From: Minisyncoccota bacterium
GTDB taxonomy: Bacteria > Patescibacteriota > Minisyncoccia > Phycocordibacterales > UBA2100
Direction of reading: 5' to 3'
DNA length: 64,000 nt
Assembly (NCBI GenBank): GCA_035500505.1
Contig: DATJXE010000004.1
Location: 126,977 to 190,976 of the forward strand
In this document: piece after piece, positions 7,927-46,229 of the stretch
Position numbering within the stretch: position 1 is the first letter of the stretch
Layout: each line of letters begins with the position of its first letter
Position numbers and translations under genes: made by a program
The notes under the pieces: generated by a model
Database searches by the model: none
Told to the model about the DNA's origin: nothing
What the model saw: the letters and a program-made list of their open reading frames with translations, nothing else

Positions 7927-7927
7927 C

Positions 7928-9648: not shown

Positions 9649-9701
9649 AAGCCCCCTAGAGTTGATTGATATGCCCCAAGTGTACAGGAATTCCCGATTC
9701 G

Positions 9702-10343: not shown

Positions 10344-10344
10344 G

Positions 10345-10416
10345 TGCGCGGTAAAGGGATCGAACCTTTGGCCCTCGTCACGTCAAGACGATGCTCTACC
10401 ACTGAGCTAACCGCGC
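10345..10416 (-). tRNA. tRNA-Val (anticodon GAC)
   Basis: Minus-strand read GCGCGGTTAGCTCAGTGGTAGAGCATCGTCTTGACGTGACGAGGGCCAAAGGTTCGATCCCTTTACCGCGCA; anticodon loop TTGACGT. Confidence 0.85.
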
Positions 10417-10561
10417 AATATTGTCGCAAACGAACTGTACGCCCCCAACTCCAGTAAGCCGCATCGTCCACCGGAGCCAACCACGCACTACCCTCACAAG
10501 GATTCCACTATACCTAGCCCGAGCGGTCTTTTCAACGTGGCAAACATGTTTAAATATCCTC

Positions 10562-11980
10562 ATGATTCTCGGGGTCGAAGAATCGGCTCTTGCTTTTGCC
10601 GCAATAGCAAATTTTGCAATTGGCTTGTATGTGTTCCTTTCCAACCCAGCCGACAATGTAAGGAGGGCTTTCTTTCTCTTTGTTGGTGGGACATCAATAT
10701 GGATCGGAGGATTTCTCACACTTCAGGCGACGCGTGATTTTGATTTAGACCCAATCACGCAATTCGGCGGACTGGCGGGAGCACTGGGGCTCATCCTATT
10801 CGCTCAATGGTTTCCAAGGCCGCAACTCCTTCCGGTACGCCCATTACTCCTCTACGCACCCTTCCCTATTGCCGCCCTCGGCATCATCCCCTGGCATTTT
10901 ATCGTTTCCGATATTCGAGCGCTTCCGGGGGGAGGGTTTGATCCAGTTCCAGGACCGCTTGCCGGTATATGGATGTTACTCATTGGTTCCTATGTGATTG
11001 CTGCCATCTACCTATTTTATGTACACTTACGCACAGCCCGCGGAAAAGAATACGAGCAGTTACTCCGTGTCTCTTTGGGAATCGGATTTTCCTCAATAAC
11101 CGCATTCGTATGCGATGTACTCCTTCCCGCAGCCGGCATATCGGGCTTAAAAGAACTAGGTCCGTTATCATCTGTCGTTTGTGTTGGGATGATCGCATAT
11201 GCGATCATGCGACACGAACTCATGGACATCCGTGGTGCCTTCAGGGAGGCACAGGGTCGCGCGCTCGAACTAGAACGTAAGGTTGCTGAGCGGACGCGAG
11301 AATTACAAGAATTGCAAGACCGGCAGAATCGAATGATGCTTGAAATCGCACATGGGCTCCAAACTCCGCTTGCCGTATTTCAAACCAAACTTGAGAAGTT
11401 AAAGTCTGTGGACCGGTATACAAGGGACGTTGAAGGGTTGGAGCGCTCACTCATAGATCTTTCCGACTTCATTGAGGACTTACTTAAATTGGCCCGTCTG
11501 GAAACCAGAGCCAGAGAGATGCCTTTTGAGAAACTGTCCTTGACGAAACTCATTGAGGAAGTTACCGAGGAGCTCCGAACTATTGCCGCCCAAAAGGGCA
11601 TAAGTGTGATTTGCCATACCAAATTGGGTATTGAAGTGCTGGCTGACAAGAGGGAATTGCGTGCGGCAATCATGAATCTCGCTAATAACTCAATGAAGTA
11701 CATGGGGCAAGAGGGGCAGCGGGAAATAGTCTTTGCACTAAGTCAGAACTATGACTGTGCGGAGCTTATGATTCGGGACACCGGTATAGGAATCTCTGAG
11801 GAAGATATTCCGCGTATTTTTGATCGCTTTTACCGTGGGACCACCCAAGCCAGTGGGAACGGATTAGGACTGGCCATCTCCAAAAATATAGTCGAACGAC
11901 ACGACGGGAATATAATTGTGCGTAGCGAAGTTGGCTCCGGTACCACAGTAACAATAACACTGCCTCTTCTCCTGACTTAG
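10562..11980 (+). CDS. membrane sensor histidine kinase (HisKA + HATPase_c); no adjacent response regulator
   Basis: 6-7 TM N-terminal region; H-box EIAHGLQTPLA; N, G1 and G2 boxes (NLANNSMKY, DTGIGI, GTTQASGNGLGLAISKNIV); ORF-track start 10421 overlaps tRNA-Val, so ATG 10562 is preferred. Confidence 0.85.
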   Translation: MILGVEESALAFAAIANFAIGLYVFLSNPADNVRRAFFLFVGGTSIWIGGFLTLQATRDFDLDPITQFGGLAGALGLILFAQWFPRPQLLPVRPLLLYAPFPIAALGIIPWHFIVSDIRALPGGGFDPVPGPLAGIWMLLIGSYVIAAIYLFYVHLRTARGKEYEQLLRVSLGIGFSSITAFVCDVLLPAAGISGLKELGPLSSVVCVGMIAYAIMRHELMDIRGAFREAQGRALELERKVAERTRELQELQDRQNRMMLEIAHGLQTPLAVFQTKLEKLKSVDRYTRDVEGLERSLIDLSDFIEDLLKLARLETRAREMPFEKLSLTKLIEEVTEELRTIAAQKGISVICHTKLGIEVLADKRELRAAIMNLANNSMKYMGQEGQREIVFALSQNYDCAELMIRDTGIGISEEDIPRIFDRFYRGTTQASGNGLGLAISKNIVERHDGNIIVRSEVGSGTTVTITLPLLLT

Positions 11981-11986
11981 GAAATG

Positions 11987-12067
11987 TGCCGGAGGAGGGA
12001 CTCGAACCCTCACATCTTGCGATACACGATTTTGAGTCGTGCGTGTCTGCCATTCCACCACTCCGGC
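11987..12067 (-). tRNA. tRNA-Leu (anticodon CAA)
   Basis: Minus-strand read GCCGGAGTGGTGGAATGGCAGACACGCACGACTCAAAATCGTG + long variable arm + GGTTCGAGTCCCTCCTCCGGCA. Confidence 0.8.
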
Positions 12068-12150
12068 CTCGCCCTTCAAAGCTTAAGCGACGAAGGGCAA
12101 TGGTCGACATGATACTTCATTTATCGTGTGATTTGAAGTACTGTAGCCCC

Positions 12151-13050
12151 ATGCAAAAAGTGCTCGTCATCGTCGGCCCGACCGCTTCGGGCAAGTCGGC
12201 GCTTGCCGTCGCCCTCGCGAAAAAGTTCAATGGCGAGGTCGTTTCGGCGGATTCGCGGCAAGTGTATCGCGGACTCGACATCGGCACCGGAAAAATAACG
12301 AGGCGGGAAATGCGCGGCGTGCCGCATCACTTACTCGACGTCGCATCGACCACGAGAAAATTCTCGGCCGGAGATTTTGCGGAACGCGCTCGCGCTGCGA
12401 TCCAAACAATATCAAAGCGTCACAAGCTCCCCGTCATCGCCGGCGGCACCGGTTTTTATATCGACGCGCTCATCGGGAGAATTTCCCTGCCGGAAGTAAA
12501 AGCCGACCCCGCACTCCGGGTCCGTTTGCAAAAGAAAACCGCCGCACAGCTCTACGTGATGCTCAAACAACGGGACCCGAAGCGCGCGAGGGCAATGCGT
12601 ACGCCGAGCGAACGCAACAACAAAGTACGCCTGATCCGCGCACTTGAAATAGCGACATCCAAGAAAGTTGCTGCGCAGCAAGCCCCTGCTTACGAAACAC
12701 TCTGGCTCGGTATCAAGCCTTCGCAAAGAGAACTAGAGCGTCGCATCCGCATGCGCCTCACAACGCGCATCCGGCAAGGTCTCATCGCTGAAGGCAGGCG
12801 TTTGCACGCGCACGGACTTTCTTACAAGCGCATGGAGGAACTCGGGCTCGAATATCGTTCGCTCTCGCGACTGCTGCAGAACAAGCTCTCAAAGAAAGCG
12901 TTCGAAGAAGAGCTCTTCCGTGACATCCGCCGCTACGCCAAAAAACAGCTCGCCTACTGGAAGCGCAATAGGGGCATCCGTTGGTATGCCCCTGAGCGAA
13001 AGCCTCGAATCATGCGCCATGTCGCGGCTTGGCTGAAAAGTGCAAAATAG
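12151..13050 (+). CDS. miaA: tRNA dimethylallyltransferase (i6A37 synthase)
   Basis: Starts MQKVLVIVGPTASGKSALAVALA...VVSADSRQVYRGLDIGTGK (P-loop + DSRQ/Y motif); ORF-track start 11986 rejected because it overlaps tRNA-Leu. Confidence 0.9.
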   Translation: MQKVLVIVGPTASGKSALAVALAKKFNGEVVSADSRQVYRGLDIGTGKITRREMRGVPHHLLDVASTTRKFSAGDFAERARAAIQTISKRHKLPVIAGGTGFYIDALIGRISLPEVKADPALRVRLQKKTAAQLYVMLKQRDPKRARAMRTPSERNNKVRLIRALEIATSKKVAAQQAPAYETLWLGIKPSQRELERRIRMRLTTRIRQGLIAEGRRLHAHGLSYKRMEELGLEYRSLSRLLQNKLSKKAFEEELFRDIRRYAKKQLAYWKRNRGIRWYAPERKPRIMRHVAAWLKSAK

Positions 13051-13066
13051 AATATGATGCCCGCAA

Positions 13067-13137
13067 GGGCGATTAGTTAAATGGTATAACTTCGGTCTCC
13101 AAAACCGACGTCGGGGGTTCGATTCCCTCATCGCCCG
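13067..13137 (+). tRNA. tRNA-Trp (anticodon CCA)
   Basis: GGGCGATTAGTTAAATGGTATAACTTCGGTCTCCAAAACCGACG...GGGGGTTCGATTCCCTCATCGCCCG; anticodon loop CTCCAAA. Confidence 0.8.
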
Positions 13138-15394: not shown

Positions 15395-17584
15395 TTGTTT
15401 TGGCTCTTTATGCTAGGATTCCCAGATATGGAGCCATCCAAAGCGCCTGACGTATTCCTGAAGCCCTTCAACCCTGCCGAGCAGGAACTACGTATGCGCA
15501 CGCTCTGGGACGAGTACGGCTATGCCAATCCGGACGTCTGCGTTGAGAAAGGCATCACGAAAAAGGACGCGGAGAGTTACTCCATCGTCCTCCCCCCGCC
15601 CAACGTAACAGGGACTCTACATATGGGCCACGCGGCCATGCTCGCCATCGAAGACATCCTCATCCGCTACCATCGCATGCGCGATTACAAGACGCTGTGG
15701 GTCCCCGGCACCGACTCCGCTGCGATCGCAACACAGGCGAAAGTCGAGGACACTATTTACAAAAAAGAAAAGAAAACGCGGCACGACATCGGGCGCGAAG
15801 AACTGATGAAGCGCATCACGGAATTCACCGACGAGAGCAAATCGACCATCATCAACCAAGTGAAAATGATGGGCTCATCGCTCGACTGGTCGCGCTACGC
15901 CTACACGATGGACGACAAGCGCAATGCGGCTGTCACCGAAGCGTTCGTGCGCATGTACGAAATGGGACTCATCTATCGCGGCGACCGCATCGTCAACTGG
16001 GACCCAAAACTGCAGACGACCGTCTCCGACGACGAAATCGAGTACGTCGAGAAAAAAGACCCTTTCTACTATTTTCAGTACGGTCCGTTCGTGATAGGCA
16101 CGGTGCGCCCGGAAACCAAATTCGGCGACAAATACGTAGTGATGCATCCGGATGACAAACGGTACAAAGACTACCAACACGGGCAGACAATCGAACTCGA
16201 ATGGATAAACGGCCCCATCACCGCGACCGTCATCAAGGATGAAGCGGCGGATATGGAGACCGGTTCCGGGGTCATGACGATAACGCCCGCACACTCGGTC
16301 ATCGACTTCGACATCGCGCAGAAACACAAGCTCGACATCGAGCAAGTTATCGACGAGCGCGGCATCCTCCTCCCCATCGCCGGAGAATTCGCCGGACAGC
16401 ACATCAAGAAAGCTCGCGCGGCCATCGTCGAGAAATTACAGAAGAAAGGCCTCGTCGTGAAGATCGACGAGCACTACGTTCACAACGTGGCAACCAACAG
16501 CCGTGGCGGCGGCATCATCGAGCCGCAAATAAAGCGGCAGTGGTTCATTGCGGTGGACAAAAAAGTGAAGCTGCCGAACGGCGAGACGAAAACGATGAAG
16601 GAGCACATGCGCGAGGCCGTTGAGTCCGGAACGATACAGATACTGCCGCAACATTTCGAAAAAATATACTTCCATTGGACGGAGATATTGCGCGACTGGT
16701 GCATTTCGCGACAGATATGGTTCGGGCATCGCATCCCGGCGTGGTACAGGGGCGACGAAGTTCACGTCGGGCGCGAAGCGCCCAAGGGTGATGGGTGGGA
16801 ACAAGACCCGGACGTGCTCGACACCTGGTTTTCTTCGGGGCTTTGGACTTTTTCGACGCTCGGCTGGCCCGAAAACACTCCTGATCTGAAGACCTATCAC
16901 CCTACATCGGTACTTGAAACCGGTTACGACATCCTGTTCTTCTGGGTCGCGCGCATGGTGCTCATGACAGGCGCGCTTTTGGGCGATATCCCCTTCAAGA
17001 AGGTGTACTTGCACGGGCTCGTGCGCGACGGCCAGGGCCGCAAGATGTCGAAGTCGCTCGATAACATCATCGATCCGTTGGACATGATAGAAAAGTTCGG
17101 CGCCGACGCGACGCGCCTCTCGCTCATCATCGGCGCGTCGATCGGCAACGACCTGAAGCTCTCCGAAGACCGCGTGCGTGGCTACAAGCACTTCGCCAAC
17201 AAGGTCTGGAACATCGCACGGTTCGTTCTTGAAAATGTCGAGCAGGGTGAAATCAACGCCGCCGACCAGGAACTACTTCGCGAGGCGGAGCGCAAAGCGG
17301 CGGAGGTTTCGCAATACATCAACGAATTCCGGCTCGACCTTGCCGCCGATGCCGTCTACCACTTTGTTTGGCATCGGTTCGCGGATGAGATTCTCGAAGA
17401 GTCGAAACCTATCTTGAAAAACCACGATGCGGCAAGCCTCAGCCGCGCCGCCGCCCTGCATGAGATACTCCTGATATCATTGAAGCTACTGCACCCCTTC
17501 ATGCCCTTCGTTACTGAAGCGATCTGGCAAGAGCTGCCGCACAGGGAATCCGACCTTCTCATGGTCGCCAAGTGGCCGATATGA
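15395..17584 (+). CDS. valS: valine--tRNA ligase (short form, about 729 aa, no C-terminal coiled coil)
   Basis: HIGH (PNVTGTLHMGHA), KMSKS (KMSKSLDN), and DTWFSSGLWTFSTLGWPE block typical of ValRS; alternative start at 15428. Confidence 0.85.
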   Translation: MFWLFMLGFPDMEPSKAPDVFLKPFNPAEQELRMRTLWDEYGYANPDVCVEKGITKKDAESYSIVLPPPNVTGTLHMGHAAMLAIEDILIRYHRMRDYKTLWVPGTDSAAIATQAKVEDTIYKKEKKTRHDIGREELMKRITEFTDESKSTIINQVKMMGSSLDWSRYAYTMDDKRNAAVTEAFVRMYEMGLIYRGDRIVNWDPKLQTTVSDDEIEYVEKKDPFYYFQYGPFVIGTVRPETKFGDKYVVMHPDDKRYKDYQHGQTIELEWINGPITATVIKDEAADMETGSGVMTITPAHSVIDFDIAQKHKLDIEQVIDERGILLPIAGEFAGQHIKKARAAIVEKLQKKGLVVKIDEHYVHNVATNSRGGGIIEPQIKRQWFIAVDKKVKLPNGETKTMKEHMREAVESGTIQILPQHFEKIYFHWTEILRDWCISRQIWFGHRIPAWYRGDEVHVGREAPKGDGWEQDPDVLDTWFSSGLWTFSTLGWPENTPDLKTYHPTSVLETGYDILFFWVARMVLMTGALLGDIPFKKVYLHGLVRDGQGRKMSKSLDNIIDPLDMIEKFGADATRLSLIIGASIGNDLKLSEDRVRGYKHFANKVWNIARFVLENVEQGEINAADQELLREAERKAAEVSQYINEFRLDLAADAVYHFVWHRFADEILEESKPILKNHDAASLSRAAALHEILLISLKLLHPFMPFVTEAIWQELPHRESDLLMVAKWPI

Positions 17585-31842: not shown

Positions 31843-34800
31843 TTAGCGCTCGACCGTGTCGCGCTCCCGTTCGGTCGTCGGTATTTCGACCGGCTGTTGC
31901 GACTGGATCTCGGCTTCCATCTGCTCGACCAGCTCATATTTTTTGCTGCCCGCAAAGCCGGTGCCGGCGGGGATGAGACGGCCAATAATAACGTTCTCCT
32001 TGAGGCCGACAAGGCGGTCGACGGCGCCGCCGACGGCGGCTTCGGCCAACTTGCGCGGCGTGTTCTGGAAGGAGATCGCCGAGAGGAAGGATGCGCGCGT
32101 GAGCGAGACTTCGGTGATACCGAGCAAAAGCTGCTTGCCTTTCGCCGGTTCTTTGTCATTCTCTTTCGCCACTTTATTCAAGCGTTCGAATTCGAAGTCG
32201 GCGACGATGTCGCCCGCGGATACGCCCGTGTCGCCCACCGAGGTGATGGAGACGCGCGAGAACATCTGCTTGACGATGATCTCCAGGTGCTTACGCGCGG
32301 TCGAAACACCCTGCAATTCGTAGATGCGGGTGATCTCGCCGATGATGTACTCCTGGGAGCGCTCCTTGCCTGCGTAGAGGAAGAGCTCATCGAGGTCCGC
32401 GGAGCCGTTGGTGAGGAAGTCTCCCTTCTGCACGGAGTCGCCGACTTTGACGACGATGGTGCGGAGCGGGTGGACGCGGTATTCGGTCTCTTTCTTGGCA
32501 CCCTTTGCGGTCTTCGCGGTCGAGGCGGTTTCGGGAACGATGGTGATGACCATTTCGTCGCCGTCCTTCACGATGTCGGAAATGACGCCGGACACGCGAG
32601 CAATTGTCGCAGGAAGCTTCGGCGCGCGCGTTTCGAAGACCTCTTCGACGCGCGGCAGACCCATGGTGATGTCGCCGCCCGCGCTCGCAACGCCTCCGGT
32701 GTGGAAGGTACGCATCGTGAGCTGGGTGCCCGGCTCGCCGATCGCCTGCGCGGCGATAACGCCGACCGCTTCACCGACGTCGACGATCTCTCCCGTCGTG
32801 AGGTCGAGGCCGTAGCATTTCTGACAAACGCCGCGCGCGACCTTGCAGGTCATGGGCGAACGTACAGTGACTTCTTTGATGCTCGCGTCATCCTCGATGG
32901 CCTTCGCGTCGTCGCGGCTCACGAGGTGGCCGCGCTTGAATGTCCCCGCTTCTTCGGCCAATACCCTCCCGACAACTCTATCGGCGAACGAACCGCCGAT
33001 GTTCTCTTTGCCCGGGCGCTGTATCGCGACCCCGCCGTGCGTGCCGCAATCGTCTTCCAGTACAACGACGTCGTGCGCGACGTCGAAGAGGCGGCGCGTG
33101 AGGTAGCCGGCGCGCGCGGTGTTGAGTGCGGTGTCGGCCAAGCCTTTGCGGGCGCCGTGGGTCGAGATGAAGTATTCGATGGGCGTGAGACCTTCTTTCA
33201 AGGATGCGGTGATCGGGAATTCGATGATCTCGCCGCGCGGGTTGGTGATGAGTCCTTTCATACCGGCCATTTGGTGCAGCTGGACGACGCTACCACGAGC
33301 GCCGGAGGTTATCATGTCGTGCACCGGACCCTGCTTGTCGAGGGCCTCGACGACGTGCTTGCGGAGGTCGCCGGACACTTTCGCCCAGATCTCGATGGTC
33401 ATGCGCTTGCGCTCTTCTTCGGTGAGGAGTCCCTGCTGGTAGTTCTCCTCTTCCTTCGCGACGGCCTCGCGGCCCGCCTTGACCAGCCCTTCTTTCACTT
33501 CGGGAACGACGACGTCGGAGAGCGACCACGTGATGCCGGCCTCGGTCGCGTAGCGGAATCCGAACGCCTTTATCTTGTCGAGGATGGCGGGGATGCCGTC
33601 GAGCTTGTAGCGCGTGACGAGCTGGTGCACGAGCGAGTTCATCCGCTTGTTGGTTATTTCTTCATTGAGGAACGGGAAATCGCTCGGCAGGACGGAGTTG
33701 AAGAGAAGCCTGCCGACGCTCGTCTCGAAAACCTTGCCTTCGAACTGCGCGTACTTCGCGCTGTCGCCCGGCAGGACCTTTATCTTCGCGCGCAGATCGA
33801 CCGCGCCGAAATCGTGCGCGGTGATGGCGGCGTTGGTCGAGGGGAACGACTTCCCTTCGCCCGCGAGACCCTCGACTTGTTTGGTCATCCAGTAGCAGCC
33901 CAGGACGATGTCGAGCAATTTGGATGCGACGACGACGTCGCCGCTCCCAGGCTTCAAGACGTTCTTGTTGGCCGACATTATTTTTGCGGCCTCCATTTGC
34001 GCGGCTTCGGAGAGCGGCACGTGCACGGCCATGGCGTCGCCGTCGAAGTCGGCGTTGTACGCCGGGCAGACGAGCGGGTGCACCTGGATGGCGTTGCCTT
34101 CGATGAGGACCGGGCGGAAGGCCTGGATGGACTGGCGGTGGAGGGTCGGCGCGCGGTTCAAAAGCACGTACTTCCCTTTGATGGCCTCTTCGAGGATGGG
34201 CCAGACTTCCGGCGCTTCGTCTTCTATCAAGCGGCCGGCGCCGCGAATGTTGTAGGCGTGTTCCCTGGCGAGCAATCCTTGGATGACGAACGGGCGGAAC
34301 AGTTCCAAGACCATGTGTTTCGGAAGCCCGCACTCGTCGAGCGCGAGTTCGGGACCGACGACGATGACGGAACGTCCCGAGTAGTCAACGCGCTTGCCGA
34401 GGAGGTTCTGGCGGAGGTACCCGTGCTTGCCCTTGAGGTAATCGGCGAGCGATTTGAGCGCGCGACGGCGGCCTCCGAGAATACCAAGCACGCCTGCGCC
34501 GCGGCGCATGGAGTTGTCGAGAAGAGCGTCGACCGCCTCCTGCAAGATGCGCTTTTCGTTGCGCAAGATGACTTCCGGCGCGTGTATCTGCTGGAGACGC
34601 TTCAAACGGTTATTCCTGTTGATGACGCGGCGATAGAGGTCGTTGAGATCGGAAGACGCGTGGCGGCCGCCTTCGAGCGCGACCATGGGCCGAAGCGCCG
34701 GCGGAACGACCGGAAGGCGCGTCATGAACATCCACTCCGGACGGACGTCGGCGCGGCGCAGGCTCTCGGCGAGCGAGAGGCGCTTGCGCAGCTTGTCGCG

Positions 34801-35550
34801 TTCGGCGGCTCCCGCCGTCTCATACTCTTCCTTGGCGTTCTTGATGAACGCATTGAGGTCGATCTTCTTCAGTATTTCGTACAGCGCTTCGGCGCCGATG
34901 GCGGCGCGGAACATCGCGCCGTATTTGACGGCGAAAAGGTGGTAGGCGGCTTCGTCGAGGACGGCGCCGACCTGCACGGATTCGATCTCTTTCTTCGCCT
35001 TGGTCGCTTTGTCCTTGAGTTCGGTTTTAATGTCTGCGTTGGCCGCCGACTTCGTCTTTGTCTGGAATTCGTGTTCGAGGTCTTTCAACAGGCGCGTTCG
35101 CTCGTCTTCGTCGACGGACGTGACGATGTAGCCCGCGAAGTACACTACTTTCTCCACTTCGGCGGCGGAAAGGCCGAGCATGAGCGCAATGCGCGACGGG
35201 ATGCCGCGGAGGAACCAGATGTGCGCGACGGGCGTTGCGAGATCGATGTGACCCATACGCTCGCGACGGACGATGGCGCGCGTAATTTCGACGCCGCACT
35301 TCTCGCAGACGATGCCGCGGAAACGGATACCTCGATACTTGCCGCAGTAGCATTCGTAATCCTTTTCGGGGCCGAACACGCGCTCGTCGAAGAGGCCGTT
35401 CTTTTCCGGCCTTTGCGTTCTGTAGTTGATGGTCTCTGGCTTCGTGATCTCGCCGAAACTCCACTCCAGCACGCGGTCAGGAGAGGCCAATCGCATCGCG
35501 ACGGCGCTGAAATCCTGCGGGATCATGTCTTTTCGTTTTGGTGTTGCCAT
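31843..35550 (-). CDS. rpoC: DNA-directed RNA polymerase subunit beta'
   Basis: 1235 aa; NADFDGD catalytic motif, zinc-binding CxxC pairs near N-terminus. Confidence 0.95.
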
Positions 35551-35555
35551 AAGGA

Positions 35556-38500
35556 TTAGGAGTTACGTGCAGATTCGCTGCCTTCTAAAAATTCGATGTC
35601 GATGCCAAGCCCGCGCAAGTGTCTGACCAGGACGTTGAACGTGGCCGGCGTGTTGGTCTCTTCGATGCGCTTGCCGGAGACGATGGCGTCGAATGCCGCC
35701 GAACGTCCCAGGATGTCGTCGGATTTGATGGTGAGAATTTCGCGCAGAGAGTATGCGGCGCCGTAGCCGAGGAACGCCCAGACTTCCATTTCCCCGACGC
35801 GCTGGCCGCCGTTCTGCGCCTTGCCGCCGAGCGGTTGCTGCGTCGTGAGCGAGTACGGACCGATGGAGCGCATGTGTATCTTGTCCTCCACCATGTGGTG
35901 CAATTTCAGCATGTACATGACGCCGACGGAGACCGGCTGCGCAAAAGCCTCGCCGGTGCGGCCGTCGAAGAGTGTGCGCTTGCCGCTCTCGTGCACGCCC
36001 GCCTTCTTGAGCTCCTCTTTGATCTCCACTTCGGTCGCCGAAGCGAACGACGGAACGACCGCCTGGTAGCCGAGCATTTCCGCCGCGAGGCCGAGATGCG
36101 TTTCGTAGATCTGGCCCAAGTTCATACGCGAGGGCACGCCGAGCGGGGTCAGGATGATGTCCACCGGGTTGCCGTCTTGATCGAAGGGCATGTCCTCTTC
36201 CGGGAGCACGCGAGAAATGACACCCTTGTTGCCGTGGCGGCCGGCGAGCTTGTCGCCTACCGAGATGGCTCGGAGTTGCGCCACTTCGACGTGGACGCGC
36301 TTGATGACGCCGCTTTCGAGCTGGTCGCCGTTCTCGCGCGAAAACACTTTGACGCCAACGATGCGGCCGCGCTTGCCGCCTTCCATGCGAAGGCTCGTAT
36401 CTTTCACGTCCTTCGCCTTCTCACCGAAAATGGCATGCAAGAGGCGCTCCTCGGGCGTGAGCTGCGTTTCGCCTTTGGGCGTTACCTTGCCGACCAAGAT
36501 GTCGCCAGGGCGGACTTCCGCACCGATCCTGATGACACCGTCCTCGTCGAGGTTGCGGAGTTTGAATTCGGAAACGTTGGGGATGTCGTGGGTCGTGACT
36601 TCCGCGCCGAGCTTGGTGTCGCGGACGACGCAGACGAACTCTTCCATGTGGATGGAGGTGAATTTCGCGTCCTTTGCAAGACGCTCGGAGATGACGATGG
36701 CATCCTCGAAGTTGGCGCCGAACCAGGGCAAAAAGGCGACGCGCACGTTCTGGCCGATGGCGAGCTGTCCGCCCACGGACGTCGATGTATCCGCGAGAAC
36801 GGTGCCCTTGCGCACCGTGTCTCCCACCGAAACGAGCGGGCGCTGGTGGAACGTGGTGAAGCCGTTGGTCCGCATAAAATTCACGAGGTTGTACTCTTTG
36901 GTCTTGCCGTCCTGGTTCTTGATCTTGATCGACTGCGCGTCGGCGAAGGTCACCTCGCCCGCCTCTTCGGCGACGACAAGTCTGCCGGAGTCGCGTGCGG
37001 CGGCGCTTTCGACGCCCGTCGCGACGACCGGCGCTTCGGGCACCACGAGCGGTACGGCTTGTTTCTGCATGTTCGAACCCATGAGCGCGCGGTTCGCGTC
37101 GTCATTCTCGACGAACGGGATGAGGGACGTTGCGACGGAGAACGGCTGGTTGGTCGCAACTTCTATGTAATCGACGTCTTCGCGACGCACCAACGTGGGC
37201 TTGCCGCCTTTGCGGACCTCGACCATCTTCTCGCTTATCTTGCCGTTGTCGTCCCGGGGCGTCGCGGCGTGCGCGATGGCGAAATCCTCTTCCTCAAGCG
37301 CGTTCAGGTAATTGATATCCTTGGTGATGCTTCCCTTCTCGACTTTCGCGTAGGGAGTTTCGATGATGCCGAATTCGTTGGGGCGCGCGTAGAGCGACAT
37401 GTGCAAGACAAGCCCGATGTTCTTGCCTTCGGGCGTGTGAATGGGACAGACGCGGCCGTAGTGCGAGGAGTGTACGTCGCGCACTTCCAATCCGGCGCGC
37501 TCCGAGGTGAGGCCGCCGCGGCCGAGCGTTGAGAGCGTGCGGAGGTGTTCTATCTCGTCGAGCACGTTGTACTGCTGCATGAGCTGCGAGAGCTGATCGG
37601 TCGTGAAGAACTCGCGGATGGCGGCATGGAAGGGGCGCGGGTTGACCATCGAGACCGGGAGGGTCGTTTCGGGATCCACCATCGCCATGCGGTCCTGGAT
37701 ATTCCGTTTCATTCTGGACAGACCGACGCGCATCCGCTGCTCGAGCAATTCCCCCGCAAAACGCACGCGACGGAAACCGAGGTGGTCGATGTCGTCCGCT
37801 TCCGCGTTGGGATTGGCGTTCAATTCGACGATGTGCGTGATGATCTTCACGAGCGTCTCGAGGTCGAGCGTCGAGCGTGCGAGGTGCTTCTCGTCGGTCG
37901 GGAGCCCGAAGCGGCGGTTGAAGTGGAAGCGGCCAACCCGAGAGAAGTCGTAGCGCTCCGCCGAAAGTATTGCCTCAACGTGGTCACGCGCGCTTTCCGC
38001 CGTGGCGATGTCGCCGTCGCGGAGCCTGCGGTAGATCTCGACGAACGCCTCTTCGACCGATTTTGCGTGATCGAGAGCCAGGGTCGTTGAGACCATGTCC
38101 CGAACGGCAGCGCTGCCCCCGCCTTTGGCGGAGAATTTTTGCATCATTTCGGCATCGGTTTTGAGGCCCAACACGCGCAAAAGCGAGGTGACCGGAAAGC
38201 GGCGTTTGCGGTCAATCTTCACATAGATAGCGCCGTCCGGGTCGGACTCTATCTCGATCCATACGCCGCGTGCGGGGATAATCTTCGCTGCGAAATAATT
38301 CTTGCCTTTGTAGGGAATGCCTTCAAAAAAGACACCGTAGGAGCGGGCGAGCTGGGGCACGACGATGCGTTCGACGCCGTTGATGATGAAGGTGCCGTGC
38401 GCGGTCATCCACGGAAAATCGGCCAGGAATATCTCCTGTTCTTTCTTGTCGCCGGTCGTCTTGTTCCTCAAGCGCACCACCATCGAAAGCGGCGCCTCGT

Positions 38501-41581: not shown

Positions 41582-43792
41582 TTACTTCGCCACCCGTTCC
41601 GCTTCCTCAAGTTTGACCGACAACAGCTTCGAAACCCCATCCTGCCCCATCGTGACGCCATACAGTTCTCCTGCCGCAGCCATGGTGGCGCGGTTGTGGG
41701 TGATGACGATGAGTTGCGACTTTGCCCCGAGCTCTTTGATCATGTCGGCGTAGCGCTTCGAGTTGGCTTCGTCGAGCGCGGCGTCTGTTTCATCGAGTAT
41801 CAAAAAGGGCGGCGGGTTCACCTGCGACATCGAGAAAATGAGGGCGATAGAGGTGAGCGCGCGCTCGCCGCCGGAAAGGACGTCGAGTCCGGTTATCTTC
41901 TTACGCGGCAGGTGCACCGAGACCGAAAGTCCGGCATACAACTCCTCTTCCTCGTCGAGACCTTGTTCCTCGTCTTCGTCGTCCGCGTCAATGCGACGCC
42001 TTGATGCACGTCTGGGTTCTTCGATCTGTAGCTTGGCGTCCCCGCCACCGAAGAGCTTTTGGAAAAAGCCTTTGAGCGCCTCGTTGATGTGTTTGAGACC
42101 GTCCCTGAACTTCTCGTCTATCGTCTTTTCAAGTTCTGCGATGATGTCTTTGAGCGAGGCGGCCGAAGTCTCGAGATCGATAAGCTCTTTCGCAAGAAAC
42201 TCGTCGCGTTCTTTGGTTTGGTTGAACTCTTTGACGACCACGTCCCCATTCCCGACACCGGATTCTTCTATCTTTATCTTCAAGCGCTCGATATCGCGGC
42301 GATGCTTTTCCTGTGTGCTTCTGTCCTCCGAAAGCGCCCCTTCCGGGATCTCTCCGCTCTCCCACCCTCGGATGCCGGGGCCGATAAGAGCAACGCCTTC
42401 GCGCACTTCTTCTTCAAATCGTTGGCGCGACCCCGAGAGCTGGACGCGCGCGGAGTTGGAGAGGTCGAGCTTGCTGCGCACCTCGCGTATCTTCGACTCA
42501 AGCTCGACGGACTCGCGCTCCGCTTTGAACGACGCTTCCCTGCTTTGTGCGATGCCCGCGCGCGCCATATCGACGTCGGTCGAAAGTTTCGCTTCTTCAC
42601 TCTCCGCCTGTTTCAGGGACGCGGAGAGACGCTCCACGTCTTGGCGGACCTCTTCGTTGGTCGCAGGCGCGGTGCCGGAGAGGCCGTCGACGAACGCCCT
42701 GATGCGGCCTCGGACATCGGCGATGACAGAGCGCAGCGACGCCGTATCCTCGACCCGCTCCGCCGAAGAAAGCGTTTCATCCACCTCCCGGACGAACTGC
42801 CGCACGTGCGGCACGGGGACGATGGCTTCGACCGTCACGTTGGTCGCTTCGAGCGCGCCTTCGGCACGGCCGAGCTCGCGAGCAAGTTCCTCCCGACGTT
42901 TTCGAACGTCGGCGAGCTTTGTCTCCAACTCTTGAACGCGACTTTGCAGACCCAGGACCGCGTTCGATGCGGCACCGCCTTTCTTTCCGGTCGCTTCGTG
43001 CAGCCTCGCGGTGAGTTGTTTGAGTTCGTGTTCATGCGCCCGCGCATCTTCCAAAAGCCGCGCGTCCTCCTGCTGGATCCAGGCATTTTCGCGCGCGAGA
43101 TAATCGTTGAGTTTGTGCGCAAGCTCATCTTTGAGCTCGCGAGCCTTTTCTATCTTTTCGACCTGATGACGAAGGAAATTGAGATGTGGAGCGATCTCGC
43201 GCCGGAGCGATCTTGTCTTCTCGATATTGATGCCGGTCTCTTCGAGTTTGCGTTCGCTCTCTATTTTCTTGTGTTGATATAACTTCAGACCAAGTGCGTC
43301 CTCGACCATCTCCCGCCGTTCGCGCGGTGAGGCGTTCAGTATCCTGTCAGCCTCGCCCTGCGAAATTATCTGATACCCCGAGCCGCCGATATTGGCGCCC
43401 GCGAGTAAGCGAATGACGTCCTTGAGCCGCACGACGGAACCGTTGAGCACGTATTCGTTCTGCCCGTCGCGATACACGACGCGCTCCACAACGACCTCTT
43501 TGAAATCGATATCGAGCAATCGTTTGGAATTATCAAAAACGACCTTCACGCTCGCCCTGTTTTGTCGAGGCATCGCGGGCGAACCGCCCCAGATGAGGTC
43601 CTCGCCTTTTCTTGAGCGCATGCTCTTCATCGACTGCTCGCCGAGCACGAAGCGGAACGCTTCGGCAACGTTGGATTTTCCCGAGCCGTTAGGTCCAACT
43701 ATGGAAGAGATCGTCGAGCCGAACACGAGCTCGGTCTTTTTGCCGAACGATTTGAACCCCGAAAGCTCGATGGATTTGAGTGCGAGGAACAT
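41582..43792 (-). CDS. smc: SMC-family chromosome segregation ATPase, unusually short (736 aa)
   Basis: N-terminal Walker A (GPNGSGKSN), C-terminal signature LSGGE and Walker B LILDETDAALD; coiled-coil-type central region; conserved rnc-smc synteny. Confidence 0.75.
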   Translation of the reverse strand: MFLALKSIELSGFKSFGKKTELVFGSTISSIVGPNGSGKSNVAEAFRFVLGEQSMKSMRSRKGEDLIWGGSPAMPRQNRASVKVVFDNSKRLLDIDFKEVVVERVVYRDGQNEYVLNGSVVRLKDVIRLLAGANIGGSGYQIISQGEADRILNASPRERREMVEDALGLKLYQHKKIESERKLEETGINIEKTRSLRREIAPHLNFLRHQVEKIEKARELKDELAHKLNDYLARENAWIQQEDARLLEDARAHEHELKQLTARLHEATGKKGGAASNAVLGLQSRVQELETKLADVRKRREELARELGRAEGALEATNVTVEAIVPVPHVRQFVREVDETLSSAERVEDTASLRSVIADVRGRIRAFVDGLSGTAPATNEEVRQDVERLSASLKQAESEEAKLSTDVDMARAGIAQSREASFKAERESVELESKIREVRSKLDLSNSARVQLSGSRQRFEEEVREGVALIGPGIRGWESGEIPEGALSEDRSTQEKHRRDIERLKIKIEESGVGNGDVVVKEFNQTKERDEFLAKELIDLETSAASLKDIIAELEKTIDEKFRDGLKHINEALKGFFQKLFGGGDAKLQIEEPRRASRRRIDADDEDEEQGLDEEEELYAGLSVSVHLPRKKITGLDVLSGGERALTSIALIFSMSQVNPPPFLILDETDAALDEANSKRYADMIKELGAKSQLIVITHNRATMAAAGELYGVTMGQDGVSKLLSVKLEEAERVAK

Positions 43793-43861
43793 TGGTCTCT
43801 ATTGTAGCAAAAAACACGAAGCCCCGGGCCGGATTGCCCAGGGCTTTCAACTTGCATGAAC

Positions 43862-44194
43862 TCAGGCCGGTCCGCGATCGTCGACGACGAGCAATCGCAC
43901 GGTTTGAGTCTCCCCGATGTGCACCTGCTTCATGGAGGTCCGACCGAATGGCATGTTCGGATCAAGCGCGTGAGCCATGGCCGACGATGTTTTAATGCAC
44001 CACTCGTCGCAGAATTTGAAGCGCACATTCTGCCCGACCACTCCGAATTTGACCGGCGACGACATCGACGTCTGCCTGACGAGGCCATCTTCGGTAAATT
44101 CCTTGCCCAGCGGAACTTCGCTTTTCCGCACCTGTTCTCCGCGAAGCGACACGATTTTCGTGCAGTCCGCGTCGCGTGCCGAATTATCGCTCAT
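43862..44194 (-). CDS. hypothetical protein (110 aa)
   Basis: ORF only; Cys pair FCDEWC. Confidence 0.3.
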   Translation of the reverse strand: MSDNSARDADCTKIVSLRGEQVRKSEVPLGKEFTEDGLVRQTSMSSPVKFGVVGQNVRFKFCDEWCIKTSSAMAHALDPNMPFGRTSMKQVHIGETQTVRLLVVDDRGPA

Positions 44195-44249
44195 AGAGCC
44201 TCCCCTTTCGATGGTCCGTTTTGCCGAGAATCCCAGGAGAAACTTTGCC

Positions 44250-44936
44250 TTACCACCCCTTCGCTGTCAAAGCCTTTTCAGCGGCAGCTTGTTCGGCTTC
44301 TTGTTTGGACCGGCCCTCGCCTGTGGCCACCTTGTCGTTGCCGATGAAGGCGCCGACGACGAATGTTTTGTCATGGTCGGGACCGGATTGGTCGAGCAAT
44401 TGGTATGCGGGTGTGATGCCGAGTTTTTCTTGCGCGGATTCCTGGAAACGGCTTTTGGCGTCCTGCCAGAGTCTGCGTGCGACGACGTCGTCGGTTTTGT
44501 GGAAGAGCTGTTTGGCGATGAAATCCTTCGCGGCGACGTAGCCCTGGTCGAGGTAGAGCGCGCCGATGAGCGCTTCAAATGCATTTGCGAGGATGATCTG
44601 CCTGGCGCGCCCCGTATCTTTCGCTTCGCCCCGCGAGAGCAAGAGAAAGTCGTTCATCCCGAGCTTTTGCGCGGCGTCGGAAATTGACTGGGTGTTGACG
44701 AGCGCCGCGCGGTAGGCAGTGAGGTCGCCCTCCGGCTTCGTCGGATATTTCTCAAAAAGAAATTCGGTAACGACGAGTTCCAAGACGGCGTCGCCGAGAA
44801 ATTCCAACCGCTCGTTGTGCTCGCGTACCGCATCGCGGTTCTCGTTCAAATACGAGCGGTGCGTGAACGCGCTTTCTAGCAAACGCTTATCGCGGAACAC
44901 GTGACCGATCCGTTTTTCGAAAACATCGAATTCCAT
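44250..44936 (-). CDS. rnc: ribonuclease III
   Basis: RNase III signature ERLEFLGDAVLELVV; C-terminal dsRBD (GEGRSKQEAEQAAAEKAL); ATG 44936 preferred over ORF-track extension. Confidence 0.9.
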   Translation of the reverse strand: MEFDVFEKRIGHVFRDKRLLESAFTHRSYLNENRDAVREHNERLEFLGDAVLELVVTEFLFEKYPTKPEGDLTAYRAALVNTQSISDAAQKLGMNDFLLLSRGEAKDTGRARQIILANAFEALIGALYLDQGYVAAKDFIAKQLFHKTDDVVARRLWQDAKSRFQESAQEKLGITPAYQLLDQSGPDHDKTFVVGAFIGNDKVATGEGRSKQEAEQAAAEKALTAKGW

Positions 44937-44941
44937 AGATC

Positions 44942-45871
44942 TTATTTCTTCTTCGACCCCTGTTCGCGTATCTTCGCAAGAGCCTTGATGGCCGGGATGA
45001 CTATTTTGTTGAGCGAGTCGTCGTAAAAGTTGAGGTCGCCGACGGCTGAAAGCGGGAACCACTGCGCGTCGTCGAGCCCTCCGGAACTTCCGAGGCGTAC
45101 CTCCGTGAACGGAGATTTCGCCAAGAAATAGGTGACGCGTTTTTTCTTTTTCCCGCCCTCGATCTTCGAATCATTGGCGACGTATTCGTTCACGCCAAGC
45201 TGTTCGACGATCTCGATATCAAGATTCATTTCTTCCTTTATTTCGCGGATCGCGCCCTGTTCGATATCCTCGCCGGGTTCGATCTTGCCCTTTGAAATGG
45301 TCCAATGCCCGAAAATATCGTGCACGAACGCGAGATAGTACTCGCCTTGGTTTTCCGCGTACACGACGGCTCCCGCAAGTTCTTCGAGCGGCATTTTCGA
45401 AGGCTTCTGGCTCTGCTGCTTGCGCGGCGTTCCGTCGGCCTTGCCCGGCTCGCCAAGCTCTATATACACGGCGCCCAGAACGCCATTGACGAAACGGCCG
45501 GAGGAATTGCTTCCGAACGTTTTGGCGAGCTCTATCGCCTCGTTTATGGCCACCTTGGCCGGCACCTGCGCTCGGTCGGCGTATAAAAGTTCCCCAAGTC
45601 CCAGCCGCAGGATATTGCGGTCGATGGCGGCGATCTTCTCGAGCGGCCATTCGGGCGCGGCGCGAACGATGACCTCGTCTATTTCTTTTTGTTTGGCGAG
45701 GATCATCTGGAGGAGCTGCTTCATGAACGGCATGTCGGAATCCCGAGCGCCGAATTCTTTGGAGTAATCGCTCAAGCGCCCGATGCATTCATCGAGCGAC
45801 ATGGTGCCGTTCTGGTCGCGCTCGAAAAGCACTTGAAGAACGATGGAACGCGCTAGGTGTCTGTTGGCCAT
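44942..45871 (-). CDS. nusB: NusB antitermination factor fused to a C-terminal NUDIX hydrolase domain
   Basis: N-terminal about 140 aa NusB-like (RHLARSIVLQVLFERD...NEAIELAKTFGSNSSGRFVNGVLGAV); C-terminal Nudix box GKIEPGEDIEQGAIREIKEEMNL (Gx5Ex7REUxEExGU). Confidence 0.75.
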   Translation of the reverse strand: MANRHLARSIVLQVLFERDQNGTMSLDECIGRLSDYSKEFGARDSDMPFMKQLLQMILAKQKEIDEVIVRAAPEWPLEKIAAIDRNILRLGLGELLYADRAQVPAKVAINEAIELAKTFGSNSSGRFVNGVLGAVYIELGEPGKADGTPRKQQSQKPSKMPLEELAGAVVYAENQGEYYLAFVHDIFGHWTISKGKIEPGEDIEQGAIREIKEEMNLDIEIVEQLGVNEYVANDSKIEGGKKKKRVTYFLAKSPFTEVRLGSSGGLDDAQWFPLSAVGDLNFYDDSLNKIVIPAIKALAKIREQGSKKK

Positions 45872-45918
45872 ACTTCGCTAAAGATCAAGGGATAAAGAGC
45901 TGAAGAACCGGGCGGCTT

Positions 45919-46182
45919 CTATGTCGCCGCCTCTTTTTGGCCTGTATCTTGTCCTGATTCTCGGAGCGCTTTCTCGCGGCGCTTCATGCGGCGGTCGGCA
46001 CGCTTTTTCTGCGCGACGATGTCGATGACGACGCGGCCTTTGTACATGCCGGTCACGGGATTCACGCGGTGCGGCAGGTAGAGGTTGCCCGCCGAATCCT
46101 TGGCGAGGCGCATGCCCTTGAGCGCGTGATGAGAGCGCCGCTTGGCGGTTTGGGAACGATTGCGACGCATTCGTACTACCAT
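45919..46182 (-). CDS. rpmF: 50S ribosomal protein L32 with basic C-terminal extension
   Basis: MVVRMRRNRSQTAKRRSHHAL...LPHRVNPVTGMYKGRVVI matches the L32 pattern; ORF-track N-terminal extension rejected. Confidence 0.75.
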   Translation of the reverse strand: MVVRMRRNRSQTAKRRSHHALKGMRLAKDSAGNLYLPHRVNPVTGMYKGRVVIDIVAQKKRADRRMKRREKALRESGQDTGQKEAAT

Positions 46183-46229
46183 ATGTCGAGGAGTATACCG
46201 AAAAATCCTGCTTTTGCAATGAAGGATAT

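Follow-up and report, generated by a model that had tools for sequence, protein, structure and literature searches.

Organisation of the locus

The gene described here lies on the minus strand at positions 44942..45871 of the window (the whole 64-kb stretch of DNA that was analysed), and consists of one uninterrupted open reading frame of 309 aa plus a stop codon. An earlier note on this DNA had read it as the transcription antitermination factor NusB fused to a Nudix hydrolase domain, and gave no strand for the gene. Since the upstream stop lies just two in-frame codons from the ATG start codon, the N-terminus of the fusion is unambiguous. Immediately upstream, also on the minus strand, is rpmF for ribosomal protein L32 (45919..46182, Pfam Ribosomal_L32p), for which we infer a start at 46182 from the typical L32 N-terminus. 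Just upstream of rpmF there is a sigma-70-like promoter match on the same strand (46192..46219, TTGCAA-16-TATACT, 9/12), a match to the consensus only. On the downstream side lies rnc (44250..44936, minus strand), encoding an RNase III of 228 aa recognized by Pfam Ribonucleas_3_3, Ribonuclease_3 and dsrm, with its ATG 5 nt past the stop codon of the fusion (junction sequence TAAGATCTATG).

The earlier placement of the gene 'directly upstream of rnc-smc' holds for rnc, whereas another 457 nt separate rnc from the SMC-like gene. This gap holds a terminator-like hairpin on the minus strand (43819..43846; 11 bp, 8 GC, followed by a T-run), which suggests that the rpmF-nusB::nudix-rnc unit ends there, before smc. 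A 110-aa open reading frame between rnc and smc is probably non-coding, because it has neither a Pfam match nor a homologue in the related loci. The 64-kb window contains no rRNA operon and no second NusB-like open reading frame.

The conserved unit is rpmF - nusB::nudix - rnc: rpmF precedes the fusion in 73 of 80 loci, and rnc follows directly, on the same strand, in all 77 related loci with room for it. The gene for ribosomal protein L32 is also found upstream of standalone nusB relatives, and in three loci (L081, L084 and L085) standalone NusB relatives of 140–149 aa sit between rpmF and rnc. The NusB half of the fusion is thus the positional orthologue of ordinary NusB. The rpmF-nusB-rnc synteny predates the fusion, and the adjacency of rnc is therefore not specific evidence for a role of the Nudix domain.

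The fusion is real and evolutionarily stable

The same intact two-domain open reading frame of approximately 300 aa is present in 79 of 80 species-representative genomes, and both Pfam domains were found in 240 of the 240 matches listed from two protein searches that each returned at least 8000 scored matches. Together these results exclude an artefactual fusion, and the fusion is confirmed as real and evolutionarily stable. An assembly or sequencing artefact, in which a lost stop codon or a frameshift joined two genes, is exceedingly improbable given that the 79 genomes are independent at the species level and that a public protein 100% identical to the fusion is on record from a 196-kb contig of a Candidatus Paceibacterota metagenome-assembled genome (MAG). 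The sequencing error that the earlier note had offered as its refutation is thereby ruled out.

At least 583 species-level matches carry the fusion without reversion to split genes, and full-length members reach down to about 31% identity. All named sources are Parcubacteria lineages, and the gene is shown to be the lineage-typical NusB of Parcubacteria (Patescibacteria/CPR). A split precursor, with nusB beside a separate Nudix gene, was found in none of the four standalone-nusB loci.

Wherever their sources name them, the fusion proteins, including the identical public one, carry the label 'NusB' only, and the second domain passes unremarked in annotation. Our literature search yielded incidental co-mentions only and no paper describing a NusB–Nudix fusion, in line with the earlier note, to which no characterized case of the architecture was known; NusB is absent from the text of a 2017 review of the Nudix clan (PMC5389931). 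A few short representatives appear as 'Nudix-only'. By eye, P0214 begins within the family linker and P0191 and P0221 begin at the domain boundary, so that these three look like pieces of fusions. The contigs carrying P0246 and P0255 are 600–700 bp long.

The N-terminal half is an orthologous NusB

The NusB domain occupies aa 7–135 (45467..45853, minus strand) and is all-helical, with helices over aa 5–139. The Pfam model PF01029 matches it with E = 7.7e-30 (104.4 bits, cutoff 23.1), and the NCBIfam nusB equivalog TIGR01951 is passed at 115.4 bits against a cutoff of 88.35, which bears out the NusB signature originally noticed in the first ~140 aa. The domain is retained throughout, PF01029 matching 48 of 48 diverse fusion members. 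In the AlphaFold2 (AF2) model this half has a pLDDT of about 90 and shows the seven-helix NusB fold, and Foldseek superposes it on Aquifex NusB from the NusB–NusE–RNA complex (3r2d_B) with a TM score of 0.86 and an rmsd of 1.9. Standalone NusB relatives share 44–51% identity with it in BLASTP. Their lengths (140–152 aa), and those of solved NusB proteins (139–156 aa), agree with the statement that NusB is normally a standalone protein of ~140 aa.

In the known complex, F122 on helix 7 of NusB stacks on U8 of BoxA, and the acidic residue E81 reads the same base (PMC3177189). By HMMER alignment to E. coli NusB, the counterpart of E. coli/Aquifex F122 is F127, which is invariant across 137 family members, and that of E81 is D84, a conservative change that is D in 97% of the family. 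The N-terminal half is thus shown by its sequence to be an orthologous NusB with its BoxA-contact residues intact, for which binding to S10/NusE and BoxA is a prediction only.

The C-terminal half resembles ApnA hydrolases

The Nudix domain spans aa 168–280 (45032..45370, minus strand) and is matched by PF00293 with E = 3.5e-16 (59.9 bits, cutoff 21.1). Both domains of the 309-aa reading frame therefore exceed their curated Pfam cutoffs, and the possibility that profile models would fail to find one of them, raised in the earlier note, no longer stands. The Nudix box GKIEPGEDIEQGAIREIKEEMNL (aa 195–217, 45221..45289, minus strand, located by regular expression) fits GX5EX7REUXEEXGU with the sole exception of G to N at position 22, and all five catalytic positions (E201, R209, E210, E213 and E214) are present.

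The half shows the alpha/beta/alpha Nudix fold and matches many Nudix structures in Foldseek at probability 1.00. Its best structural match is Aquifex aq_158 (3i7u; TM 0.88, rmsd 2.3, 30% identity), followed by MutT1, Ndx1, NDX-4, CT771 and NUDT2, and the Nudix domain of NrtR is also among the top fold matches. The top PDB matches by sequence (1kt9, 9cxx, 3i7u, 3u53 and 1vc8) are Ap4A/Ap6A hydrolases and mycobacterial MutT1. By its closest sequence and structure neighbours the half belongs with the ApnA hydrolases, an assignment under which its activity is predicted only. No ApnA-hydrolase equivalog model is reached. Among the Nudix equivalogs MutT1 scores highest (34.5 bits, cutoff 475), and the best RppH model (NF001936) gives 22.3 bits against a cutoff of 118, so that the domain is not a member of the RppH family.

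The closest structural relative bears on what the predicted activity could be. Although named an 'Ap4A hydrolase', aq_158 (3I7U/3I7V), also called Omnivore RNA pyrophosphatase, was shown in 2026 to convert ppp- and pp-RNA to p-RNA and to take off Ap4, NAD, FAD and m7G caps, its E51A mutant being inactive (PMC13145063). The same work notes that Nudix substrate preference is hard to predict from sequence (PMC13145063). E51 of aq_158 aligns with E214 of the fusion, which is kept in 78 of 79 species. The kinship with aq_158 and the ApnA hydrolases lends support to the earlier note's suggestion that the Nudix partner could act on RNA 5' caps or alarmones in the setting of rRNA antitermination, a role that is still a prediction. 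We make no claim that Y230 stacks on adenine: in HMMER alignments only the bacterial homologues (Aquifex, Thermus and MutT1) place Tyr at this position, and the 'specificity tyrosine' of the human and C. elegans ApnA hydrolases misaligns with it.

Catalytic residues are lost in much of the family

A canonical Nudix box is present in the window's protein, as the earlier note had it, but is not a trait of the family, most orthologues lacking at least one catalytic residue. All five are found in only 34 of 79 species-level orthologues, and a strictly canonical box (by regular expression) in 23 of 79 of these and in 9 of 58 divergent representatives; hydrolysis is therefore not the family-wide function. 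The glutamate of the 'RE' pair is missing in 87 of 136 full-length members, including relatives 73–75% identical to the window's protein, and has undergone about 24 state changes (an approximate figure, from Fitch parsimony on a crude UPGMA tree). Even so, W190, K194, Y230, Y248, W271 and Y283 stay 89–97% conserved in members without this glutamate; judging by the alignment, these flanking residues may contact a ligand. Degenerate boxes read, for example, VDVEE in the L007 protein and QATEE in that of L008. Of 48 diverse members, 9 fall short of Pfam NUDIX and none has lost NusB.

Catalysis seems, from these sequences, to be dispensable in many lineages. Because so many orthologues have lost the 'RE' glutamate, a metal ligand, the conserved property of the family appears to be binding of a nucleotide or 5' end rather than its hydrolysis. 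The repeated loss of catalytic residues with the domain kept also supplies natural pairs of enzyme and pseudo-enzyme with which binding could be separated from hydrolysis.

Two alternative readings draw on this pattern. In the first, the Nudix domain would be mainly a non-catalytic sensor or reader of Ap4A/ApnA, another nucleotide or a capped 5' end, modulating NusB-dependent antitermination and rRNA folding; alarmone levels under stress would thereby be coupled to ribosome synthesis, with retained hydrolysis serving only to reset the signal. The recurrent loss of the 'RE' glutamate amid well-conserved flanking residues, and the drift of some members beyond Pfam NUDIX while NusB persists in all, speak for such a sensor. 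Ligand-binding, non-enzymatic Nudix domains are documented in transcriptional regulators, channel gating and DBC1 (PMC5389931), and the fold match to the Nudix domain of NrtR points the same way. We nevertheless consider this reading unlikely: the catalytic set is complete in the window's own protein, the model predicts no allosteric interface between the domains, and the glutamate matching E51 of aq_158 is retained almost universally, which argues that selection still acts on some chemistry.

In the second, the Nudix domain would serve the antitermination complex as a structural part or as a module for protein interactions, which might replace a SuhB-like factor or contact RNA polymerase, S10, NusA or RNase III. 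It would account for a fold that is kept where catalysis is apparently dispensable, and it has a parallel in SuhB, an accessory protein with an enzyme fold that belongs to the rRNA antitermination complex of E. coli. We judge it very unlikely, since conservation in the Nudix half is highest at residues shared with the substrate-facing motifs of ApnA hydrolases (WT..KG and the tyrosines) and does not mark out a new surface.

A flexible tether is predicted between the two halves

The inter-domain linker (aa 142–157, 45401..45448, minus strand) is disordered in the AF2 model, with pLDDT below 50, and is the least conserved internal segment of the fusion (mean conservation 0.44); its length is shown to be roughly 16–25 aa. 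The model of the whole fusion has a mean pLDDT of 85.7 and a pTM of only 0.48, with no contact between the domains, indicating no fixed domain arrangement. A flexible tether is thus predicted to join the NusB and Nudix halves. Separate expression of the Nudix half from an internal start at Met160 was considered and rejected, as this residue is unconserved in the family consensus. C-terminal to the Nudix domain, AF2 secondary structure places a long helix with a basic tail (aa 284–308, 44948..45022, minus strand); the tail, ...KIREQGSKKK, is poorly conserved in the family.

A flexible linker without predicted contacts would also fit two independent modules, in which case the fusion would be functionally uncoupled, the Nudix half being a housekeeping ApnA or NTP-sanitising hydrolase that acts on free cytoplasmic nucleotides and merely shares its expression with NusB in a streamlined genome. 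CPR genomes are compact, and the closest relatives of the domain were first characterized as hydrolases of free nucleotides (Ap4A/Ap6A or 8-oxo-GTP). A housekeeping hydrolase, however, should keep its catalytic residues, of which most orthologues have lost at least one with the domain kept, and independent modules sit poorly with a fusion that persists intact in members of only ~31% identity and in at least 583 species-level matches, with no return to split genes. Uncoupled function is in our estimation fairly improbable.

A BoxA-like element precedes the fusion gene

The 5' untranslated region of the fusion contains a BoxA-like core, GCTCTTTA (45893..45900, minus strand), 29 to 22 nt before the ATG, which agrees exactly with the published BoxA consensus GYTCTTTAANA over the first 8 nt of the latter; the paper giving this consensus also provides a precedent for autoregulation (PMC5725501). 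A second, weaker BoxA-like copy, GATCTTTA (45879..45886, minus strand), can be read in the sequence 15 to 8 nt before the ATG and overlaps the expected position of the ribosome-binding site. The association recurs among relatives. Upstream of the fusion, 23 of 78 loci carry G[CT]TCTTT in the sense orientation, compared to 3 of the 264 upstream regions used as controls (Fisher p = 1.5e-13); in the antisense orientation it occurs in none of the 78, and shuffling gives a mean of 1.2. The most frequent 7-mer upstream of the fusion is GTTCTTT itself (16/78 versus 0/264). No BoxA-like motif was present upstream of the four standalone nusB genes. The enrichment is indirect support for the predicted binding of BoxA by the NusB half with S10. 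A BoxA-like element over the gene's own ribosome-binding region suggests autorepression by NusB/S10.

Proposed function of the fusion

The NusB/S10/BoxA system is among the best-studied bacterial transcription systems, and NusB itself has, to our knowledge, never been credited with an enzymatic activity. Research on non-canonical RNA caps and on the removal of 5' pyrophosphate is advancing fast, with little understood of how the enzymes are targeted. In the present case a whole major bacterial lineage joins NusB to a Nudix domain, beside RNase III, in hundreds of species-level genomes and thousands of sequence clusters, a pairing which suggests that RNA-end processing is tied to rRNA transcription.

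We postulate that NusB tethers an RNA 5'-end pyrophosphohydrolase or cap binder to nascent transcripts bearing BoxA, an explanation to which we give slightly less than an even chance. The NusB half, together with S10/NusE, would bind BoxA on nascent transcripts, chiefly rRNA leaders, and this binding would place the Nudix domain beside the 5' region of the same RNA. There the domain would act like aq_158 and its proposed analogue RppH, leaving a 5' monophosphate in place of a 5' triphosphate or of an Np4/nucleotide-type cap. The leader would thus lose its 5' protecting group, a step complementary to cutting by the RNase III whose gene starts 5 nt downstream. Coupling to RNA processing draws on the rnc gene next door and on the predicted flexible tether. 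Against the tethering model stand the identity to aq_158 of only 30%, with no curated subfamily model reached, the loss of catalytic residues in most orthologues, and the lack of inter-domain contact in the AF2 model. The fusion would be a natural, directly testable case of RNA 5'-end chemistry tethered to the elongation complex.

A more speculative extension, which we regard as somewhat unlikely, would have NusB–Nudix travel with RNA polymerase along BoxA transcripts, reading and erasing RNA 5' ends as transcription proceeds: catalytically intact members would remove the triphosphate or cap (Np4, NAD), and the degenerate majority would only bind it, or free Ap4A. If true, rRNA folding, RNase III processing and ribosome output would all be linked directly to the status of alarmones or caps. 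The Nus complex would gain a new regulatory input, and NusB–Nudix would be the first elongation factor with its own 5'-end enzyme.

Comparison with known systems

The N-terminal half resembles the canonical NusB of E. coli, Aquifex and Thermotoga in its TIGR01951 match, its fold (TM 0.86), its counterparts of F122 and E81 and its rpmF-nusB-rnc slot. Canonical NusB, however, ends after helix 7 (139–156 aa), whereas the fusion runs on through the disordered linker into a Nudix domain of 150 aa.

For the C-terminal half, aq_158 has in common with the fusion a W-x-x-x-K-G motif preceding the box and a Tyr on the strand that follows the box. It is a free-standing enzyme of 134 aa without an RNA-targeting domain, while the activity of the fusion is a prediction, and the glutamate equivalent to its E47 is missing in many fusion orthologues. 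E. coli RppH, a Nudix enzyme that trims protected RNA 5' ends to monophosphates and also removes Np4 caps, is the proposed functional analogue of the Nudix half; it is not tethered to a transcription factor, and the fusion lies outside its family. Mycobacterial MutT1/Rv2985, a high-ranking match in both sequence and structure, likewise holds an ApnA-type Nudix domain within a two-domain protein. There the Nudix domain stands at the N-terminus, ahead of a histidine-phosphatase-like domain, with no tie to transcription factors. NrtR, the NUDT9-H domain of TRPM2 and DBC1 are Nudix folds with degenerate motifs that serve ligand binding on a regulator, as may the degenerate-box majority of the fusions, although they belong to another Nudix subgroup (ADP-ribose/NAD type) and have other partners, and the window's protein keeps a complete box.

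Two further systems are comparable in architecture. Dcp2 is likewise built from a helical N-domain, then a flexible hinge and then a Nudix domain, and Foldseek aligns both halves of the fusion to it over about 270 columns (rmsd about 14 Å, 15% identity); its helical domain is unrelated to NusB, and the analogy is one of architecture only. The RsmB/Sun 16S rRNA methyltransferases offer a precedent for a NusB-fold RNA-binding module joined to an rRNA-directed enzyme. RsmB models match the fusion only in its NusB half, and there in part (44.1 bits versus a cutoff of 319), and the fusion has no methyltransferase domain: in RsmB the N-domain is a NusB paralogue and its partner a methyltransferase, whereas in the fusion the partner is a Nudix domain and the N-terminal half is the NusB orthologue itself.

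The nusB::nudix fusion and its distribution

The nusB::nudix gene lies at 44942..45871, as the earlier note had it, with the correction that it is on the minus strand. Its ATG follows an upstream stop by only two in-frame codons, and the 309-aa ORF is uninterrupted. Pfam resolved NusB (PF01029) at aa 7–135 (E=7.7e-30, 104.4 bits against a cutoff of 23.1) and NUDIX (PF00293) at aa 168–280 (E=3.5e-16, 59.9 bits against 21.1), confirming the proposed two-domain composition, and the protein also passed the NCBI NusB equivalog model TIGR01951 (115.4 bits, cutoff 88.35). The Nudix box, which the same note had called canonical, occupies aa 195–217 in the C-terminal half and obeys GX5EX7REUXEEXGU save for one deviation (G to N at position 22). 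The AF2 model of the whole protein has a mean pLDDT of 85.7 with a pTM of only 0.48; pLDDT falls below 50 at aa 142–157, and a long C-terminal helix (aa 284–308) follows the Nudix domain. The predicted picture is of two rigid domains joined by a flexible tether.

Public records already contain a protein identical to the fusion, from a 196-kb Candidatus Paceibacterota MAG contig. With this one sequence as query, a search returned at least 8000 matches, all 120 of those listed (76–100% identity) carrying both Pfam domains, and a profile built from 48 diverse members likewise gave at least 8000, with two domains in every match listed. At least 583 stretches from GTDB species representatives encode a relative; the best 80 of these all span aa 1 to about 300, and the ORF is intact in 79. 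When the 50%-identity representatives were searched exhaustively, about 58 full-length clusters emerged, with identity down to about 31%. By record titles and names the sources include Kaiser-, Adler-, Nomura-, Zambryski-, Taylor-, Lloyd- and Moranbacteria; Kaiserbacteria and Moranbacteria, the two checked in the NCBI taxonomy, belong to the Parcubacteria group of Patescibacteria. Wherever the source names the protein, it is called 'NusB' and nothing more. The intact ORFs and the two-domain matches rule out the sequencing error that the note had feared, and we give an assembly or sequencing artefact a negligible probability: the fusion is lineage-wide.

Gene neighbourhood and orthology

The gene order on the minus strand is rnhB, rpmF (L32), nusB::nudix, rnc (RNase III) and an smc-like gene, with dnaE divergent. 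The ATG of rnc begins 5 nt after the fusion stop codon, so a placement 'directly upstream of rnc-smc' holds for rnc and not for smc, which is not immediately adjacent. The fusion gene sits in a conserved unit with the L32 and RNase III genes: rnc is downstream on the same strand at all 77 related loci with enough room (≤60 nt away in 50), and rpmF precedes the fusion in 73/80. Because a promoter-like match stands directly upstream of rpmF and a strong terminator-like hairpin (43819–43846, minus strand; 11 bp, 8 GC, then a T-run) separates rnc from smc, the likely transcription unit is rpmF-nusB::nudix-rnc.

The 457-nt rnc-smc gap (43793–44249, minus strand), which ends in this hairpin, contains a 110-aa ORF (43862–44194) without a Pfam match; none of the related loci has a homologue of it. 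The smc-like gene (41582–43792, minus strand) encodes only 736 aa, with Pfam SMC_N at aa 5–721 and no match to the SMC hinge domain at E≤0.001, where a typical bacterial SMC has roughly 1200 aa. Its homologues at the 80 related loci are likewise short (mostly 725–836 aa by longest-ORF length), and it looks like a lineage-typical mini-SMC. The window also holds five tRNA genes, spread over both strands in about 5.5 kb (7586–13137), no rRNA gene or operon anywhere in its 64 kb, and a GC content of 0.616 at 32001–36000 versus 0.545–0.582 elsewhere.

At three of four standalone-nusB loci examined, a NusB of 140–149 aa occupies the slot between rpmF and rnc, which makes the NusB half the positional orthologue of ordinary NusB; these standalone proteins share 44–51% identity (BLASTP) with the fusion's N-terminal half. 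None of the four has a Nudix gene nearby. The Nudix domain was so added at the NusB C-terminus, between nusB and rnc, and because the rpmF-nusB-rnc order predates the fusion, synteny is no specific evidence on the Nudix role. Outside the fusion clade that order does not always hold: the 152-aa standalone relative in L082 (GCA_013387205.1, WARV01000010.1) sits elsewhere, with groES-groEL and small unannotated ORFs upstream of it.

The NusB half and a BoxA-like element

In the AF2 model the NusB half (aa 5–139, pLDDT about 90) is all-helical and superposes on Aquifex NusB from the NusB-NusE-RNA complex with a TM of 0.86 and rmsd of 1.9 Å. There, F122 contacts BoxA U8 by stacking and E81 reads the U8 base; F122D causes an in vivo defect (PMC3177189). 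The equivalent F127 is invariant in 137 family sequences, and D84 (= E81) is D in 97%. Mean column conservation is highest in the NusB half (0.64; Nudix half 0.55, linker 0.44), and PF01029 was found in 48/48 diverse members. By these measures of predicted fold and conservation, this half of the protein seems fully functional.

Between rpmF and the fusion ATG, a 47-nt spacer (...CAGCTCTTTATCCCTTGATCTTTAGCGAAGTATG) contains a BoxA-like motif, GCTCTTTA (45893–45900, minus strand), followed by GATCTTTA, in a 5' UTR stretch (45879–45900, minus strand) across the expected ribosome-binding region. GCTCTTTA agrees fully with the published consensus GYTCTTTAANA over its first 8 nt (PMC5725501), and NusB-NusE recognises eight nucleotides (PMC3177189). 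The sense strand carries G[CT]TCTTT no more than 60 nt ahead of the fusion in 23/78 related loci; among control regions, taken upstream of five neighbours, the figure is 3/264 (Fisher p=1.5e-13), with 0/78 on the antisense strand and a mean of 1.2 (max 5) in shuffled sequences. The sites concentrate 7–25 nt before the start codon, and an unbiased count returned GTTCTTT as the commonest 7-mer (16/78 vs 0/264). The motif was not found ahead of any of the four standalone nusB genes examined. The enrichment offers independent, if indirect, support for BoxA binding by the NusB half. It also mirrors E. coli suhB, for which BoxA-mediated translational autorepression was shown, and proposed for other Nus genes (PMC5725501); by analogy, it suggests Nus-factor autoregulation of nusB::nudix in Parcubacteria.

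A GC-rich hairpin (GGCGGC...GCCGCC, 45911–45928) stands right before the BoxA-like motif and takes in part of the rpmF stop codon or all of it; it is flagged terminator-like on the plus strand only, where no gene ends. Only six G[CT]TCTTTA sites exist in the whole window, both strands. A further exact GCTCTTTA (15403–15410, plus strand) lies about 18–25 nt before the likely ATG (~15428, MEPSK...) of a valyl-tRNA-synthetase-like ORF (15395..17584), which may be another BoxA-regulated translation gene.

Relatives and catalytic residues of the Nudix half

The PDB sequence matches of the Nudix half are asymmetric ApnA hydrolases (C. elegans NDX-4, human NUDT2, Aquifex aq_158, Thermus Ndx1 and the N-domain of mycobacterial MutT1), and like them it has an (H)W(T/S)xxKG motif immediately ahead of the box. 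No curated Nudix subfamily model was reached (RppH, 22 bits vs cutoff 118; MutT1, 34.5 vs 475). The top structural match is aq_158 (3i7u; TM 0.88, rmsd 2.3 Å, only 30% identity); the fusion protein is an orthologous NusB with a tethered aq_158-like Nudix domain. The Aquifex enzyme, which had long gone by the name Ap4A hydrolase, converts 5'-ppp and 5'-pp RNA to 5'-p and removes m7Gp3, Ap4, NAD, FAD and sugar caps whatever the 5' sequence; its E51A mutant is inactive, and sequence is a poor guide to Nudix specificity (PMC13145063, 2026). E51, the second Glu of 'EE', aligns with E214. A housekeeping ApnA/NTP hydrolase functionally uncoupled from NusB would suit the ApnA-type matches; we think it unlikely.

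Judged by its box residues, the family as a whole has not conserved catalysis. All five catalytic positions (E201, R209, E210, E213, E214) are kept in 34/79 species-level orthologues and 9/58 divergent 50% representatives, and a strict canonical box (regex) in 23/79; the window protein is one of the fully canonical minority. E214 is kept in 78/79, and E210, the 'RE' glutamate, in 36/79 and 13/58; E210 is missing from 87/136 full-length members, most often with K, V, I or A in its place. Fitch parsimony on a crude UPGMA tree counted about 24 state changes at E210 versus about 40 with shuffled tip states. Degenerate boxes occur even in relatives 73–75% identical to the window protein (ERKEE in L006 and L009, VDVEE in L007, QATEE in L008), and NUDIX was detected by Pfam in only 39/48 diverse members. 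One subclade (L015, L016, L018, L023, L026, L028, L034, L040, L041, L050, L071, L074) has a 5-residue insertion in the box (e.g. GKIGDREDIKNE...), which breaks the GX5EX7RE spacing and keeps the glutamates. W190, K194, Y230, Y248, W271 and Y283 are 89–97% conserved among E210-lost members. With E210 lost and these flanking residues kept, the domain is under selection, though in many lineages for something other than canonical metal-dependent hydrolysis. A mainly non-catalytic nucleotide or cap sensor that modulates NusB would fit such members; against it stands the complete box of the window protein, and we think it as unlikely as the uncoupled hydrolase. As a structural module of the antitermination complex, or one for protein interaction, the domain could likewise do without E210; given the conserved flanking residues, we rate this less likely still.

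A tentative mechanism and its parallels

We tentatively prefer, at somewhat short of an even chance for the whole mechanism, a BoxA-tethered Nudix domain that acts at or binds RNA 5' ends or ApnA. NusB-S10 bound to BoxA on nascent rRNA leaders would hold the Nudix domain near the same transcript's 5' end; a catalytically intact domain, as in the window protein, could there remove a triphosphate or nucleotide-type cap, and elsewhere it may only bind the 5' end, or bind free ApnA. Full-text literature searches found no description of the NusB-Nudix architecture, and a comprehensive Nudix-clan review (PMC5389931) nowhere mentions NusB, in agreement with the first impression that it was uncharacterised. 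Each of its domains is familiar and databases already contain the proteins, so it is no new category; nusB::nudix is an uncharacterised lineage-wide variant with a clear, testable hypothesis. A parallel is Dcp2 (helical domain, hinge, Nudix), whose Foldseek alignment spans both halves of the fusion at an rmsd of about 14 Å, a likeness of layout only.
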